From the NCBI GenBank assembly GCA_964016885.1, contig OZ024742.1:143902001-143966000 (forward strand): 64,000 nucleotides of DNA, in the 5' to 3' direction. The stretch comes from Eledone cirrhosa (lineage: Eukaryota). How positions within the stretch are numbered: the stretch's first letter is position 1; the number at the start of each line of letters is the position of its first letter. The translations under genes were made by a program, and so were the position numbers. This document shows, piece after piece, positions 191 through 43,402 of the stretch. The notes under the pieces were generated by a model. It did no database searches, was not told where the DNA came from, and saw only the letters and a program-made list of their open reading frames with translations.

Positions 191-291
191 AAAGAGATGA
201 AATCGAAAATGCAACTGGAGTCTTATTTTTAAAAAAAAATATATATATTTAAAAAAAAAGACTCCAGTTGCATTTTCGATTTCATCTCTTT
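191..291. repeat. Stand-alone DNA palindrome (34-bp perfect arms) between two (TA)n tracts
   Basis: aaagagatgaaatcgaaaatgcaactggagtctt (191-224) is the reverse complement of 258-291; A/T-only spacer; (TA)n on both sides. Confidence 0.9.
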
Positions 292-953
292 TATATATAT
301 ATATATATATATATATATATATATATATATATATATATATATATATATATATATTCTTTGTTTGTTAAAATAATCAAATTAAATTAATTCAACAGTTAAA
401 CACACATAGGAATAATGAGGTTGTTACCAAAGAGCCAGAAGATTGACAAGTCGACCCTAAATATGAGTAATAGCTCTAGGAAAGCCATGAATGACACCAG
501 AACTTTTAAACTTTGATTTTGAAAGTAGGTCTAATTTTTATTATGCTTTTGTTACTGTCTCGGCGGCCTAGTAAAAAAAAAAATGCCAACACAAGAGCAA
601 GAATGAGGGGCTCATTCTACTGACATAGCTTTAAAAAAGAGGCTGTTTGCATAATTGCAAACGAATCGAATATTATTAATATAAAAAAAAACTTAGATTA
701 CATTTATTGTATTAAGCCATGTAGAGCGATAATTCTTTTTTTTTAATATGGCAAAACCGACTATTAATCGCTCGTATACAGGAAACTGACAGGCCTGCCC
801 GCTGATATGCAAATCTGTCTGATCAGTGGATCTCTTAATATGCAGAACTGACTGAGCAGTAAGTCTGCTAATAGGCAAACCAGGCCAATCAGTTACTGTA
901 TATTTTAGAAAATATATATTTTCACTAGCTCTGACAGTTGGCAGGTACACAGT

Positions 954-1003
954 GAATTGCACCGATGAAGCGTAATACCCAGAAACTTTAGTGTTTGCAG
1001 TTC
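954..1003 (+). ncRNA. Degenerate type I hammerhead ribozyme motif
   Basis: Helix I gaattgca/tgcagttc (8 bp), core CCGATGA (U to C change), GAAA at 982-985, GTT at the cleavage triplet; helix II decayed. Confidence 0.5.
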
Positions 1004-1121
1004 TGTTTACATGCTAACACAAGAGTAAAGAATGAGGGACTCATTCTACTGACATGGCTTTAAAAAAGAGGCTGTTTGCATAATTGCAAACGAATCGAAT
1101 ATCATTATTAATATTTGAAAA

Positions 1122-1292
1122 TTATAGGGCGGTGAATTGGCAGTATGCTTTGACGCATAGAGTTACGGCCCTTGCTATTCTGAGTTCAAATCCCACCGAG
1201 GTTAACTTTGCCTTTCATTCTTACGGGGTCGATAAAATAAAGTACCAGTAATGCAGTGGGTAATTGCTGGCCTTGTGCCGAAAGTAGAAACA
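1122..1292 (+). mobile_element. tRNA-derived SINE, family A, with 18-bp TSD
   Basis: B-box-like gagttcaaatcc; conserved body gcctttcat..gggtcgataaaataaagtacc; TSD attattaatattYgaaaa at 1104-1121 and 1293-1310. Confidence 0.9.
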
Positions 1293-1389
1293 ATTATTAA
1301 TATTCGAAAAACTCAGATTACGTTTATTATATTCAGCCATGAAGAGCGATAATTTTTTAAAATCTATATATACAGTATATATATATATG

Positions 1390-1620
1390 AATAAAATTAG
1401 TCCTTCATCAGTGATCTTCCAACCTTCATTGGTATTTCTTCACTTTAAAGATACCTCTGGTTGGTGCGAGCAATAACTAAAGAAAGTTATTGGGACACGT
1501 AAATTAGGGAGAAGCGAGCGAGACATGTAAACAAACATAGATGGTAATGTAACGGAAAGAGAGGAAGAGAAGAGACAAGTCCGTGATATCTATGAACTTC
1601 AGGTATTTTGTAAAAGCTAA
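1390..1620 (-). mobile_element. PLE pLTR-like fragment, homologous to 23230-23450
   Basis: Reverse complement aligns with 23230-23450 (ggttggaagatcactgatgaaggac, ctcgcaccaacc, acgtgtccca); holds the CTGATGA half of a hammerhead; abuts (TA)n. Confidence 0.55.
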
Positions 1621-1780
1621 GCATTGGCTCCTAAAATACTACAGTGGGCCCTGCAATGTAACTGTGGGCTCCTGCAATGCTACCGTTGTCCCCCTGGGTC
1701 CCACTTTCCATTGGGCAACCTGGCAACCTGGCCACTCCACCACAGGATATATATATATATATATATATATATATATATAT

Positions 1781-39639: not shown

Positions 39640-40098
39640 TCTATAATCAGAAGAAGTAGGTGTAAAAGCTAAACTCACTATCTTCAATTCGCTATTCGTA
39701 CTATGGTCGTGAATTTTGAGTAATGACCGAAAGAATACGATAGCCAATATAAGCGGCCGAAATAGGGTTCCTATAAAGGGTCTTTGGGGTAACGTTACTC
39801 GATAGAGTGCTTGGCTTGGAGGTCAGAGAGCCATTCCATGTAGAGCCGCCACTGCTCCGATACTACAGACATGTGTTCAGAATGTCTCAGGAAAGAGTTG
39901 CTGGACAGATTTTACAGGCAAAACAAGCCGACAGAAGACCCAGGGGTAAACCCCGAGCAAGATGGTTGGATAACATCCATGAGCTCAGTTACTCACGTTT
40001 GGGGATCCAGCCGGATCAGTTGGAGACGATTGCTTCTGACACAACCCGCTGGAAGGAGCAATTGAAGACTCAGCCCCTACGACCCTCTGAAGAATAAG
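39640..40098 (+). mobile_element. RTE-clade (Rex3-like) LINE 3' end
   Basis: MTERIR..AAEIGFL..VTLLDRV..RHVFRM..RRPRGKPRARWLD. Confidence 0.85.
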
Positions 40099-40151
40099 TG
40101 GGCGACGAAGATATACATGTGTGTGTATGTATATATACATGCATACATACA

Positions 40152-40845
40152 AATGAGGAGGAATATGTTGAGACAGATGGCACTAAGGAATACTGGTGGA
40201 ACCTGAAAATAAAAACTGTCACCAAATTAAAGCGCAATCGGCCTGATATTGTTGTATGGGGCCGCACATGAAGACGTGCTCTGTTGTAGAGTTCAGCTGC
40301 CCACTTGATGTCAACGTTGTAAGAAAAGTACAAGAGAAGGAGGACATCTACGGACCATTGATGAGGAGCTTACAAATCCAGTATCCAAGATACACTTTCA
40401 GCTTCATACCCATCATTATTGGAGGGATTGGCAGTATCGGTAGAGGGTCGGACGCCATGCTTTCCAGCATAGTTACGTCCCTTTACGATCTGAGTTCAAA
40501 TCCCGCCGAGGTTGACTTTGCCTTTCATCCTTACGGAGTCGATAAAATAAAGTACCAGTAATGCACTGGGTATTTGCTGGCCTTGTGCCTAAAGTAGAAA
40601 CAATTATTGGAGCTTACATGTTATATACCAACCCGCTTGGACCAAAGTATAACTGAACTTGGATTTGTGGACAAAGAGCACAGCTCCCTAATTCATAGAC
40701 TACAGATGGCTGCGATAGCTGGCACCTTCAAAATTTGCAAAACATTCTTGCGATTCAAGGGATGACAATTTCCTTTCTTTTACAACCTTGCCACCAGGAA
40801 GGTGGCCGGTCAAAAATGTACTCGAAATTAAGGGAAAGAGAAACA
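40152..40845 (+). mobile_element. R4/Dong-like LINE 3' end (restriction-like endonuclease), split by a SINE
   Basis: EYWWN..NRPDIVVW..VVEFSCP..EKEDIY..IPIIIG..KICKTFL; CATA-type repeats at both ends. Confidence 0.85.
40425..40602 (+). mobile_element. SINE family A with 10-bp TSD
   Basis: TSD attattggag at 40415-40424 and 40603-40612. Confidence 0.95.
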
Positions 40846-41559
40846 CACATAAATACATAAACACATACATGCATACACATATACATACATGTGTGTGTGT
40901 GTGTGTGTGTGTGTGTGTGTGTGTGTGTGTGTGTGTGTGTGTGTGTGTGTGTGTGTTGTGAATTAAAGAATTCATTTTATCTTTTGCCTGTGGAGGCTTC
41001 CGGTAGCGGTAAAGTGTCACAGATGTCAACGAAGGCACATGATAGAGTGAGTGACAGAGAGGGTGAAGGGTGGGTGGGGGGGGGGGGGGAGAGCTGTTTA
41101 TTACTTCTGTGTTGTGCGGTCTTGAGAACGATTTAGAGATGCATAGATGTACGTACATGCATGCTTACATAGACATACACACAGACATACCTAGATACAT
41201 ACATACATACCTATATACATACATACATACATACATACATACATATATACATACATATATACATACATGAATATACATACATACCTATATACATACATAC
41301 GTACATATATACATACATGAATACACATATGCATACATTCTAAATTATAGAATTATCAAGCCATTTGAACTGATTTCTCTAAATTACACACACACACACA
41401 CACACGCACACACACACGCAAACACACACACACACACACACACACACACACACACACACATATATATATATATATATATATATATATATATATATATATA
41501 TATATATATATATATATATATATATATATATATATATATATATATATATATATATATAT

Positions 41560-41744
41560 GTAGTATGCAAAGTTCGAACTTTCGAAATGCTGAGATATTA
41601 TAAGGTTCATAGAAAACCACAATTAGTAAAGTACTCAATACAATAGTAGAGTGTAAACATCAAGTTTAATATAGAAATGGCTTCTACAGGACTAGAACTG
41701 ATGATTTCTTCTGAATGAAACAGTTCTAATCCTGTAGAAGCCAT
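41560..41744 (-). mobile_element. PLE fragment ending in a 24-bp-arm hairpin whose loop holds a hammerhead core
   Basis: atggcttctacaggactagaactg / cagttctaatcctgtagaagccat (41677-41744); CTGATGA-tttc-ttct-gaat-GAAA-cag..ctGTA on +; (TA)n flanks. Confidence 0.75.
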
Positions 41745-43226
41745 ATATATATACTGGCTCTAGCGAGGTCTCATGTTTATTGATATAGTATACGCTTTCA
41801 TACACACGCCTAATATGTGTGTGTGTGTGTGTGTGTGTGTGTGTGTGTGTGTGTGTGTGTGTGTGTGTGTGTGTGTGTGTGTGTGTGTGTGTGTGTGTGT
41901 GTGTGTGTGCGCGCGTGCGTGCGAAATATAAACGGAAAATAACACATGAATCTAAGAATCTAAAGTAAACTTTTAACCAACTAAATGTTTTGCGCAGCGC
42001 TTTTTCTTTTATGGTCGCCACTTGGTAATGAAGCTGACCTACAACTCCCATAGATATCATTTGTTTACATATGTAGGAAAAGTGTTAATAGCAGTCTCTA
42101 GAAAACGGCTAAAAAAATTCAGTACTGGATTGTAATTGAATCTATCTTATTAAATCGGATTAAGTATGCTAGAAACACAAATGTTCAGTGAACCCGAAAT
42201 ATCGTGTGACACTTCTGTTATTGGGGTTGTTGTTGTTTTCTCGTTCTTTCCTCAAGACATTAAAAATATTCCCACTGGGACTTCAGCCATGTCTTAGTAA
42301 CAACCTTTGAGGTCGTTCTTTTAAACTAGAAACTCTTGGATATTAACCTCAGGTCAAGATACTGAAATTTTAATAGTTATTGAATTTTCAATTTTCGACG
42401 AGATATTTCTTATGAGACAAATTTTCCATTTGATATCACATTGGTTATTCGTTCTTCCATGTTTCTACTTGACACATCAACACAATAACAGTTTTCTAAT
42501 GTTATTATTGTGATATCAACGTTCCCACTTGATACTTCAAATATCAATATTCGATTACATAAATGCATTATTGATTCATGCAGCATTGAAATTACACTAG
42601 ATTTGTCTGATTGTAACTACAGTTATGGTGTTTTTAAAAACCCATTGTAAACGTTTTAAGTCATAAGCATAAACTTTAGACAGTTAGTCACAGCTTAGAC
42701 ATCAAGGATATTTCTATCTGTACCATAAACATAAAAGTAATTTCTAACATAGAAACAAAGCCTTGTATTAGTAACGGTTTCGTGCCCGTAAATATGACTA
42801 GATCTTTCTGATGCAATAATATATAAGTGAAATTTGAAATAGAGAAGCTGACAAACTAACGCTTTAAAAACTAATCGCACTGCACAAAATGGGTTGACAG
42901 GTGTCTGAAAAGAATTGGTATCTTTGCTGGTGGTGTATATGCTGGGAGTTTTGGTATGCCAGTTCGAGGATGGAGTTACTTGGCCCCGATCATCTCGCAC
43001 GAACCATCTTATATATATATATATATATATATATATATATATATATATATATATATATATATATACTTCTGCGTTCACAGATTGATTTTTTTCAGTTTCA
43101 GAAGATCCCGTTAAGGGTGAAAGCAGCGATTATTTTCTTAAACTTTAATCTGTTATTTTAATAAATAATTAATATATATATGTATATATATATATATATA
43201 TATATATATATATATATATATATATA

Positions 43227-43402
43227 GGAACCAGTAAGACCCCGACAGCTGAGCTCAAGCCGTTTCGACGAATTAGCCGTCGAAACGGCTTGAGCTCAGC
43301 TGTCGGGGTCTTACTGGTTCCTATTACCCACTCTACTACCTCAAGTATTGAGTACTTTGGTGCGTTATGGTCCACCTGGTTCCTTACCACATTTCCTTCG
43401 TT
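43227..43402 (+). mobile_element. Family P1 copy 6
   Basis: Inverted repeat 43227-43321 plus body; (TA)n flanks. Confidence 0.9.

Follow-up and report, generated by a model that had tools for sequence, protein, structure and literature searches.

Penelope-like elements pair two fixed ends head to head in (TA)n tracts of Eledone cirrhosa: a candidate twin-priming route

Introduction

Penelope-like elements (PLEs), a telomerase-related class of retroelements, have been reported to insert as inverted copies, and we describe here how such insertions are built in a 64,000-nucleotide (nt) stretch of Eledone cirrhosa DNA (C3:143,902,001-143,966,000 of the 3.0-Gb assembly G000; hereafter the window) and in other loci that were compared with it (L-numbers). 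Head-to-head palindromes with a tail on one of the two inverted pseudo-long terminal repeats (pLTRs) were described in PMC3846280, whose Discussion puts forward self-priming. The inverted 5' copy, the one-sided tail and a (TA)n bias are also described in PMC8557442, which calls their cause undefined; in PMC8557442 and PMC11167929, the origin of PLE inverted copies and of the one-sided tail is given as an open problem. A purified PLE, Anolis Poseidon, nicks and extends both strands of an AT-rich target in vitro, starts reverse transcription at two sites that flank the tail, and is predicted to form a dimer; the accessible text neither models inverted copies nor ties the two sites to them, and reports no strand preference (PMC11167929). 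In LINE-1 twin priming, both nicks prime on one RNA, producing a 5' inversion at a random internal site, a join at microcomplementarity, internal deletions or duplications, and short duplications (median 22 bp, 17% of cases) (10.1101/2024.08.27.596794; twin priming is also described in 10.1101/2024.12.14.628481). Further context is provided by PMC8969392 and 10.64898/2026.07.22.740005.

The insertions studied here share with published PLE insertions (PMC3846280; PMC8557442, Fig. 2 legend) the inverted 5'-truncated copy, the junction palindrome, the one-sided tail, the (TA)n bias and partial tandems (L310, L306), although their tails are ~40-130 nt long, compared with 30-40 nt in the published accounts. 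They resemble the Poseidon reaction in the two tail-flanking starts, the AT-rich target and the extension of both strands, with the difference that the start usually matches the target at a TA. The inversion, the type of join and the internal deletions or duplications resemble those of LINE-1; however, the internal site has a fixed position close to the 3' end, and overlaps are as a rule long.

Whereas the published PLE accounts offer the layout together with self-priming or endonuclease resolution, pairing, arm lengths and template sharing were counted here over 14 families. In every family, copies end 3' at either of two fixed positions: S, which lacks a tail, and T, which lies further 3' and carries one. 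These ends pair one to one, either arm may be the longer, both arms share a template lineage, and they are joined by microhomology, bluntly or through filler. The layout is known, and self-priming, a mechanism already suggested in print, does not suffice; what is new, and testable, is a strict S+T rule under which either arm can be the longer. We estimate a probability of about 0.6 that the inverted pairs arise by programmed twin priming on one RNA, followed by end joining, with snap-back synthesis contributing only junction filler. No twin-priming model for PLEs was found in the literature covered, which leaves many subscription papers and the PLE reviews of 2005 and 2006 outside.

Results and Discussion

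Palindromes in the window

An earlier reading of the window, made from its letters only (the sequence-only reading), had listed 11 palindromes, and all 11 were found where it placed them, each with (TA)n at, or a few bases from, one outer arm. Their arms are 16-63 nt long and their loops 0-21 nt, with 0-2 mismatches between arms in ten copies and 7 in the older copy at 24025. A perfect arm of at least 15 nt was present in 9 of 67 TA-adjacent segments, in none of them in each of 30 shuffles, and in 1 of 336 TA-distant windows. The palindromes had been ascribed to at least five unrelated sequences; multiple sources were indeed found, but these are six repeat families, A (six copies), B, C, D, F and G, and not unrelated single sequences.

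The hairpin had been placed at the 5' side, and all window cases are 5'-to-5' (head-to-head) joins. In a sample of 1.4 Mb, drawn by position as 140 stretches of 10 kb each, 69 of 218 hairpins could be tied to a curated arm (the other 149 could not); of these 69, 66 mapped to a junction or a 5' end and 3 were close to a 3' end. The sample held 82 head-to-head pairs. The view that truncated insertions routinely deposit palindromes was upheld. The outer arm had been said to stop at TA or AT, which holds for the S end in 15 of 17 curated families; that this stop is one fixed site per family had gone unremarked. The loop often belongs to the outer, tail-less arm, as at 26716 (10 nt) and 41677 (20 nt), where it is native sequence. 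Two tail-less ends are joined at 191-291, and positions 13-99 hold the same type of head-to-head join with neither a palindrome nor arm overlap. The palindromes are real, and each consists of two 5'-truncated arms of one element, head to head in (TA)n.

Two fixed ends and their pairing

When TA-adjacent sequence was clustered, S ends and T ends appeared in similar numbers per family (139 and 137 in family A), with one site of each kind per family. Seventeen families were curated with two ends, the optional tail being a PLE feature. An ACTC..GAGT or GCTC..GAGC motif lies 5-8 nt past S in 7 of the 17, and the ACTC..GAGT motif from which polarity had been read therefore sits in the tail. Copies that bear open reading frames (ORFs) end at S or T. 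Both ends of family A were also present in the raw reads of three further samples, all from one study: 3,441-3,793 reads turn to (TA)n at S, and opposite-strand joints starting inside the tail were seen, for example 6878 to 6962 in 55, 109 and 104 reads of the three samples. Stems in the tail folded no better than shuffled sequence.

In the 1.4-Mb sample, 377 arms were typed and a pair was defined as two arms lying head to head within 60 nt. The 82 pairs, formed by 164 arms, comprised 75 same-family S+T, 2 S+S, no T+T, 3 with an odd end and 2 between families. Among same-family pairs with two typed ends, S+T thus accounted for 75 of 77 (p=2e-20 against free choice), and such pairs were present in 14 of the 17 curated families. 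Between-family joins, taken over all loci, were S+T in 2 of 7 (p=1e-5 versus same-family). Loci selected for their junctions (30 + 30) were excluded from these main counts. S arms also occur alone, between TA tracts (L079, L103, L302), or fused to another family (L040, L058, L259), showing that S is used as a primary end.

Arm lengths

The sequence-only reading had proposed snap-back as the mechanism: the 3' end of the complementary DNA (cDNA) folds back, primes second-strand synthesis and jumps onto (TA)n by TA microhomology. In the version weighed here, the cDNA is primed at the tail, the jump is made at the internal TA, and asymmetric cases would result from later one-sided deletion of the palindrome. 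Since a tailed cDNA cannot template uncopied sequence, snap-back forbids an S arm that reaches further 5' than its T arm. Among the 75 unselected S+T pairs, however, S was longer by >10 nt in 24 and T in 13, and of the 38 pairs within 10 nt of symmetry, those with S longer (16) were as common as those with T longer (9). The T arm passed S by no more than 20 nt in 11 of the 75 pairs and by more in 64.

A young subfamily of family F, in which 40 of 40 scored matches were identical over 221 nt, yielded 15 resolved pairs (14 S+T and 1 S+S) from 26 loci, or ~23 insertions; these loci were picked for length and youth, and L293, L297, L298, L312 and L316 lie outside the resolved set. S was longer in 10 of the 14 S+T pairs, by 110 to ~4,200 nt. 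The T arm of L311 stops 5 nt inside the tail, and in the window a 440-nt S arm of family G is joined to a 15-nt T arm. Snap-back would require kilobase one-sided deletions in most of the very young copies, yet two very young family F copies keep near-symmetric arms of 3.1-3.4 kb as near-perfect inverted repeats (asymmetry 110-237 nt):

L307, G000:C3:159977500-159984750
L309, G000:C1:133388500-133395300

Snap-back also sits poorly with outer arms that stop at one site despite passing other TAs (3 odd ends versus 75) and with the use of S alone and in between-family joins. It does predict S+T pairing, shared variants between arms and the 38 near-symmetric joins; fold-back fillers exist, the variant pattern of L306 (below) fits it, and self-priming has been put forward in print (PMC3846280). 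Local fold-back synthesis at some junctions survives from the earlier proposal and snap-back may account for part of the near-symmetric class, but as the main route we regard it as unlikely.

Shared template and junction structure

Private variants, seen at no other locus, were common to both arms in L109, L304, L307 and L309, and pairs sharing variants include cases with S 1.9-2.2 kb longer. The arms therefore share one template lineage. Family A arms differed over 38 nt by 3.2 within an insertion and by 7.1 between insertions, and 16 of 23 pairs kept their subfamily tag versus 15% at random, with at least 2 of the 23 inflated by indels. Columns 4052-4054 were considered as arm-discordant variants and dropped, being a CT/TA microsatellite boundary.

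Junctions were examined in 101 S+T joins from the sample, the window and incidental flanks. Microhomology of at least 2 nt was present in 35, 25 were blunt or shared 1 nt, 19 carried 1-5 nt of filler and 22 carried at least 6 nt. Six of these 22 longer fillers were templated from nearby arm sequence, and some fillers correspond to gaps in the reference; in L043, L050 and L060, fold-backs of 55-65 nt precede the join to the A arm. Templated fillers and these fold-backs indicate that fold-back synthesis is real but local. A double fold-back filler was observed at L115:793-1011, where each arm folds back by ~9 nt before the two join at a 6-nt native palindrome.

Strict pairing and symmetry would also be accounted for by a self-primed hairpin DNA in which the endonuclease makes staggered cuts, at S and at T, before insertion, and PMC8557442 credits the tail to endonuclease resolution. 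However, such an intermediate demands opposite staggers for S-longer and T-longer cases, as well as kilobase loops, and PMC11167929 maps the tail to start sites of the reverse transcriptase (RT); we find it improbable. Another possibility is that short palindromic masters, similar to miniature inverted-repeat transposable elements (MITEs) or short interspersed elements, are copied whole, as sets of nearly identical family A copies (177, 180 and 183 nt), spread over many contigs, might suggest. Against this, the same junction occurs on different sequence backgrounds (L021, L029, window 18205), unselected junctions mostly differ, and arms extend up to kilobases into ORFs. Whole-unit copying may apply to a few groups; as a general explanation it is very improbable. 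MITEs in the strict sense were rejected, the two ends differing by the tail, lengths and junctions varying, and arms continuing into ORFs for RT and endonuclease (EN).

Raw reads over the palindromes

Palindromes could in principle be fold-back artefacts of assembly or library preparation. The palindrome at 43227 was crossed by 1-3 short reads in two runs and by none in a third, while its inner arm was covered by ~1,700-2,000 reads. Loss of hairpins during the polymerase chain reaction is expected. Near-symmetric joints were present in raw reads at 4-5 starts per run, whereas raw-read support for the exact palindromes is weak. Artefactual sequences would not end at family-specific sites and run on into unique flanks, and the arms bear independent mutations; an artefactual origin is hardly credible.

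Proposed programmed twin priming

In the favoured route, the EN would nick both strands of the (TA)n target, and one 3' TA end would pair with UA at S while the other paired at T on the same RNA. The rear cDNA would usually pass S by strand displacement, the overlap becoming the palindrome; stalling at S would leave none. Both cDNAs may often halt at one place, either the broken 5' end of the RNA or a point of collision, giving the symmetric class. The 3' ends of the two cDNAs would then be fused by host end joining, accompanied in some cases by short fold-back synthesis. The proposal rests on the pairing and length counts together with the in vitro reaction (PMC11167929). A LINE-1-type process, with a random internal site and little overlap, does not describe these insertions, in which the site is fixed and overlap exceeds 20 nt in 64 of 75 pairs; the PLE route would work like LINE-1 twin priming, but it is not LINE-1 twin priming.

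Several observations weigh against this proposal. The 38 of 75 junctions within 10 nt of symmetry are what snap-back predicts directly, and they fit twin priming only by the added assumption of a common halting place. The 5' ends of paired arms are coupled: 52 of the 101 joins lie within 10 nt, compared with 35.8 in permutations (21 of 58 versus 12.7 without family A), a level that no permutation among 10,000 attained. The excess of S-longer over T-longer pairs is not significant (p=0.10 and 0.18), and, judged from the genome alone, one-sided deletion after insertion could also yield asymmetric pairs. Shared variants fit one RNA, two RNAs of one locus or later conversion equally well, and in the tandem L306 the inverted T arm has a variant in common with the upstream unit next to it and not with the downstream one, a pattern that suits snap-back too. 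Start-site choice in vitro was equal on both strands (PMC11167929), so that nothing yet enforces S+T. Under the 60-nt rule, 213 of the 377 arms are unpaired. Among unpaired arms, counted with the window included, 31 have an S+T partner of their own family at a greater distance, and the others are solo, reference-limited or unassigned, the solo class containing low-complexity noise and not being used as a rate. Arm ends located by BLAST are uncertain by 2-3 nt, and by more at self-complementary centres. The sparse reads across the palindrome at 43227 belong here as well.

Two RNAs from one source locus, held by an asymmetric RT dimer, could also be primed. Between-family joins (2 of 82 unselected pairs, 7 in all) show that two RNAs can meet, the tail-less arms at 191-291 differ beside their centre, and a dimer is predicted (PMC11167929). 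Coupled 5' ends are left unexplained by this model, however, and between-family joins break the S+T rule; we consider it doubtful, slightly more so than snap-back. With twin priming on one RNA retained as the preferred reading, a broader claim, to which we would give even odds, is that programmed twin priming, by an RT dimer that primes both target strands at two fixed tail-flanking sites of one RNA, is the PLE default, such that the tail, the inverted pLTR and the 5' palindrome come from one event that has produced ~10^5 inverted repeats in a 3-Gb genome.

The counts give sharp predictions for the in vitro system, namely both start sites in each insertion, marks of one RNA in both arms, and either arm longer. 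If the reading is true, twin priming, a side reaction for LINE-1, would be the main route for a telomerase-related retroelement class. By extrapolation from 82 pairs per 1.4 Mb, the whole genome would have ~175,000 head-to-head joins, making them a large source of DNA able to form cruciforms, which short reads under-count.

Arms in the window

The arms of each copy are as follows.

13..99, family A join without palindrome: tail-only T arm (minus strand, 13-58) and S arm (plus strand, ~54-99, with an internal deletion)
191..291, family C (Neptune-like 3' end): two arms without a tail, joined at a native ATATAT palindrome and unlike in the A/T run beside the centre
1781..1919, minus strand, family A tailed arm, its 5' end 7 nt longer than its partner's
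1921..1971, plus strand, family A tail-less arm
13731..13785, minus strand, family A tail-less arm, exceeding its partner by 2 nt; 10-nt filler at 13786-13795
13796..13915, plus strand, family A tailed arm
17046..17485, minus strand, tail-less arm of family G; its 440 nt belong to a tandem unit with a putative hammerhead, no ORF found
17485..17499, plus strand, family G arm with the tailed end, 15 nt; the tandem nature of the unit makes it palindromic
17556..17619, minus strand, family F (Hydra-like) tail-less arm
17620..17775, plus strand, family F tailed arm, 3 nt longer, 87% to the full-length L310
18205..18247, minus strand, family A tail-less arm
18248..18379, plus strand, family A tailed arm, 8 nt longer
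23803..23934, minus strand, family A tailed arm
23938..23992, plus strand, family A tail-less arm, 3 nt longer, preceded by a 3-nt filler
24025..24079, minus strand, tail-less arm of an older family A subfamily, zero-loop join
24080..24217, plus strand, tailed arm of the older family A subfamily
26622..26768, minus strand, family B tailed arm
26769..26835, plus strand, family B tail-less arm, with the native 10-nt loop
41615..41700, minus strand, family D tailed arm, read by hand and absent from the automated census; the adjoining 41560-41614 is unassigned
41698..41744, plus strand, family D tail-less arm, with a CTGATGA..GAAAC core and the native 20-nt loop
43227..43270, minus strand, family A tail-less arm
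43271..43401, plus strand, family A tailed arm, 8 nt longer

Family identities

The sequence-only reading took the fragments for PLEs, and four of the six families (A, B and F, Hydra-like; C, Neptune-like) trace to PLE ORFs. Within the window, tblastn detected no PLE ORF. In family A, an ORF with an RT thumb and EN lies upstream and ends ~950 nt before the element 3' end. The full family F unit in L310 is 4,022 nt long, with an 802-nt direct repeat (pLTR) and an RT-EN ORF split over two frames, in which DKT, YRDD and FLDI were read by eye, as in PLE-type RTs; Atlas matches of 0.95-0.98 link the family F protein to clusters with HTH_animal and RVT_1. A Pfam search gave no significant match for the family A or F ORFs. 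The C-termini of A and F, where PLEs carry a GIY-YIG endonuclease, are EN-like and 42% alike, and family B has an EN fragment in L288. Partial tandems or pLTRs were seen in L310, L306 and the family G tandem, and were not seen for families A-D.

Hydra motifs (DKT, a CxCX5C linker, no CCHH, CxxC and CxH around E and N) were present by eye in the L310 and family A ORFs, and the family B fragment also fits this description. The Hydra clade (PMC8557442, section 11) has DKT, CxCX5C, no CCHH, C-terminal CxxC and CxH, a hammerhead (putative in the families here) and a (TA)n target in common with family F and partly with A and B; however, it is described as 'generally <3 kb' with RWK, whereas family F has a 4,022-nt unit and RWR. 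On these motifs, families A, B and F can be called Hydra-like only. For family C, RT thumb and EN lie upstream of the arms, which are ~1 kb downstream of PF01541 matches over the cut-off (L155, L159, L162). Translations of L155 and L159, read by eye, show a CX4CxxC linker and CCHH in the EN, in line with the Neptune features (CX2-5CxxC linker, CCHH), and the family appears Neptune-like. The two GIY-YIG matches at G000:C1:97887800 and 97889741, each in a 402-amino acid (aa) frame and facing apart, are likely a long head-to-head Neptune-like insertion.

Hammerheads had also been reported by the sequence-only reading. Cores of the form CTGANGA..GAAA were seen by eye in B, D, F and G, with a variant in A, although none was seen in C. 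An Rfam scan gave no hammerhead among the 150 of 153 matches listed, with sub-threshold microRNA-like matches from simple repeats only. The family A core (L098:6825-6935) is hammerhead-like with three stems, and has TTGACAA for CTGATGA, positions 3 and 8 being changed together. A search for canonical CTGANGA upstream of family A returned 45 junction chimeras and no native core, because the native core is this variant. The junction hotspot of both family A arms falls in the stem II loop of the same fold; symmetric junctions of this family concentrate 50-60 nt upstream of S.

Family D has a hammerhead core and a single weak ORF link (L172), and no ORF was found upstream of it in 10 loci. Family G, whose unit of ~530 nt is arranged in tandem, has a hammerhead core read by eye and 892 first-look candidates; no ORF and no EN were found for it in 12 loci. 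As a tandem, apparently non-coding unit with a putative hammerhead it resembles the non-LTR retrozymes (10.64898/2026.07.22.740005), but differs in having S/T ends and head-to-head joins like coding PLEs. Because it uses the same S/T ends, family G is likely a retrozyme-type passenger of PLEs.

Other observations

Further PLE-type arms of families K, H, M7 and E lie between TA tracts at 354-1375, 43066-43171 and 43470-44315 of the window, several of them without a close partner. Another family contributes nested inverted arms at 22212-22992, where a hammerhead-like core lies near 22646; relatives are tandem, with a spacing of ~540-580 nt in L086 and 490 nt in L015. Three non-LTR retrotransposon copies (27750-34856 and 44558-46750, minus strand) contain ORFs of up to 678 aa that resemble apurinic/apyrimidinic endonuclease and RT.

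Of the 657 perfect (TA)15+ tracts in the 1.4 Mb, 147 abut the 3' end of a curated PLE; TA tracts beside PLE ends are longer (median 11-13 units versus 7). In some flanks, a short motif together with TA recurs many times over (window 13695-14190). Synthesis may be reiterative and telomerase-like. In L052, the TA tract is interrupted in the same way on either side of the insertion, which resembles a target-site duplication.

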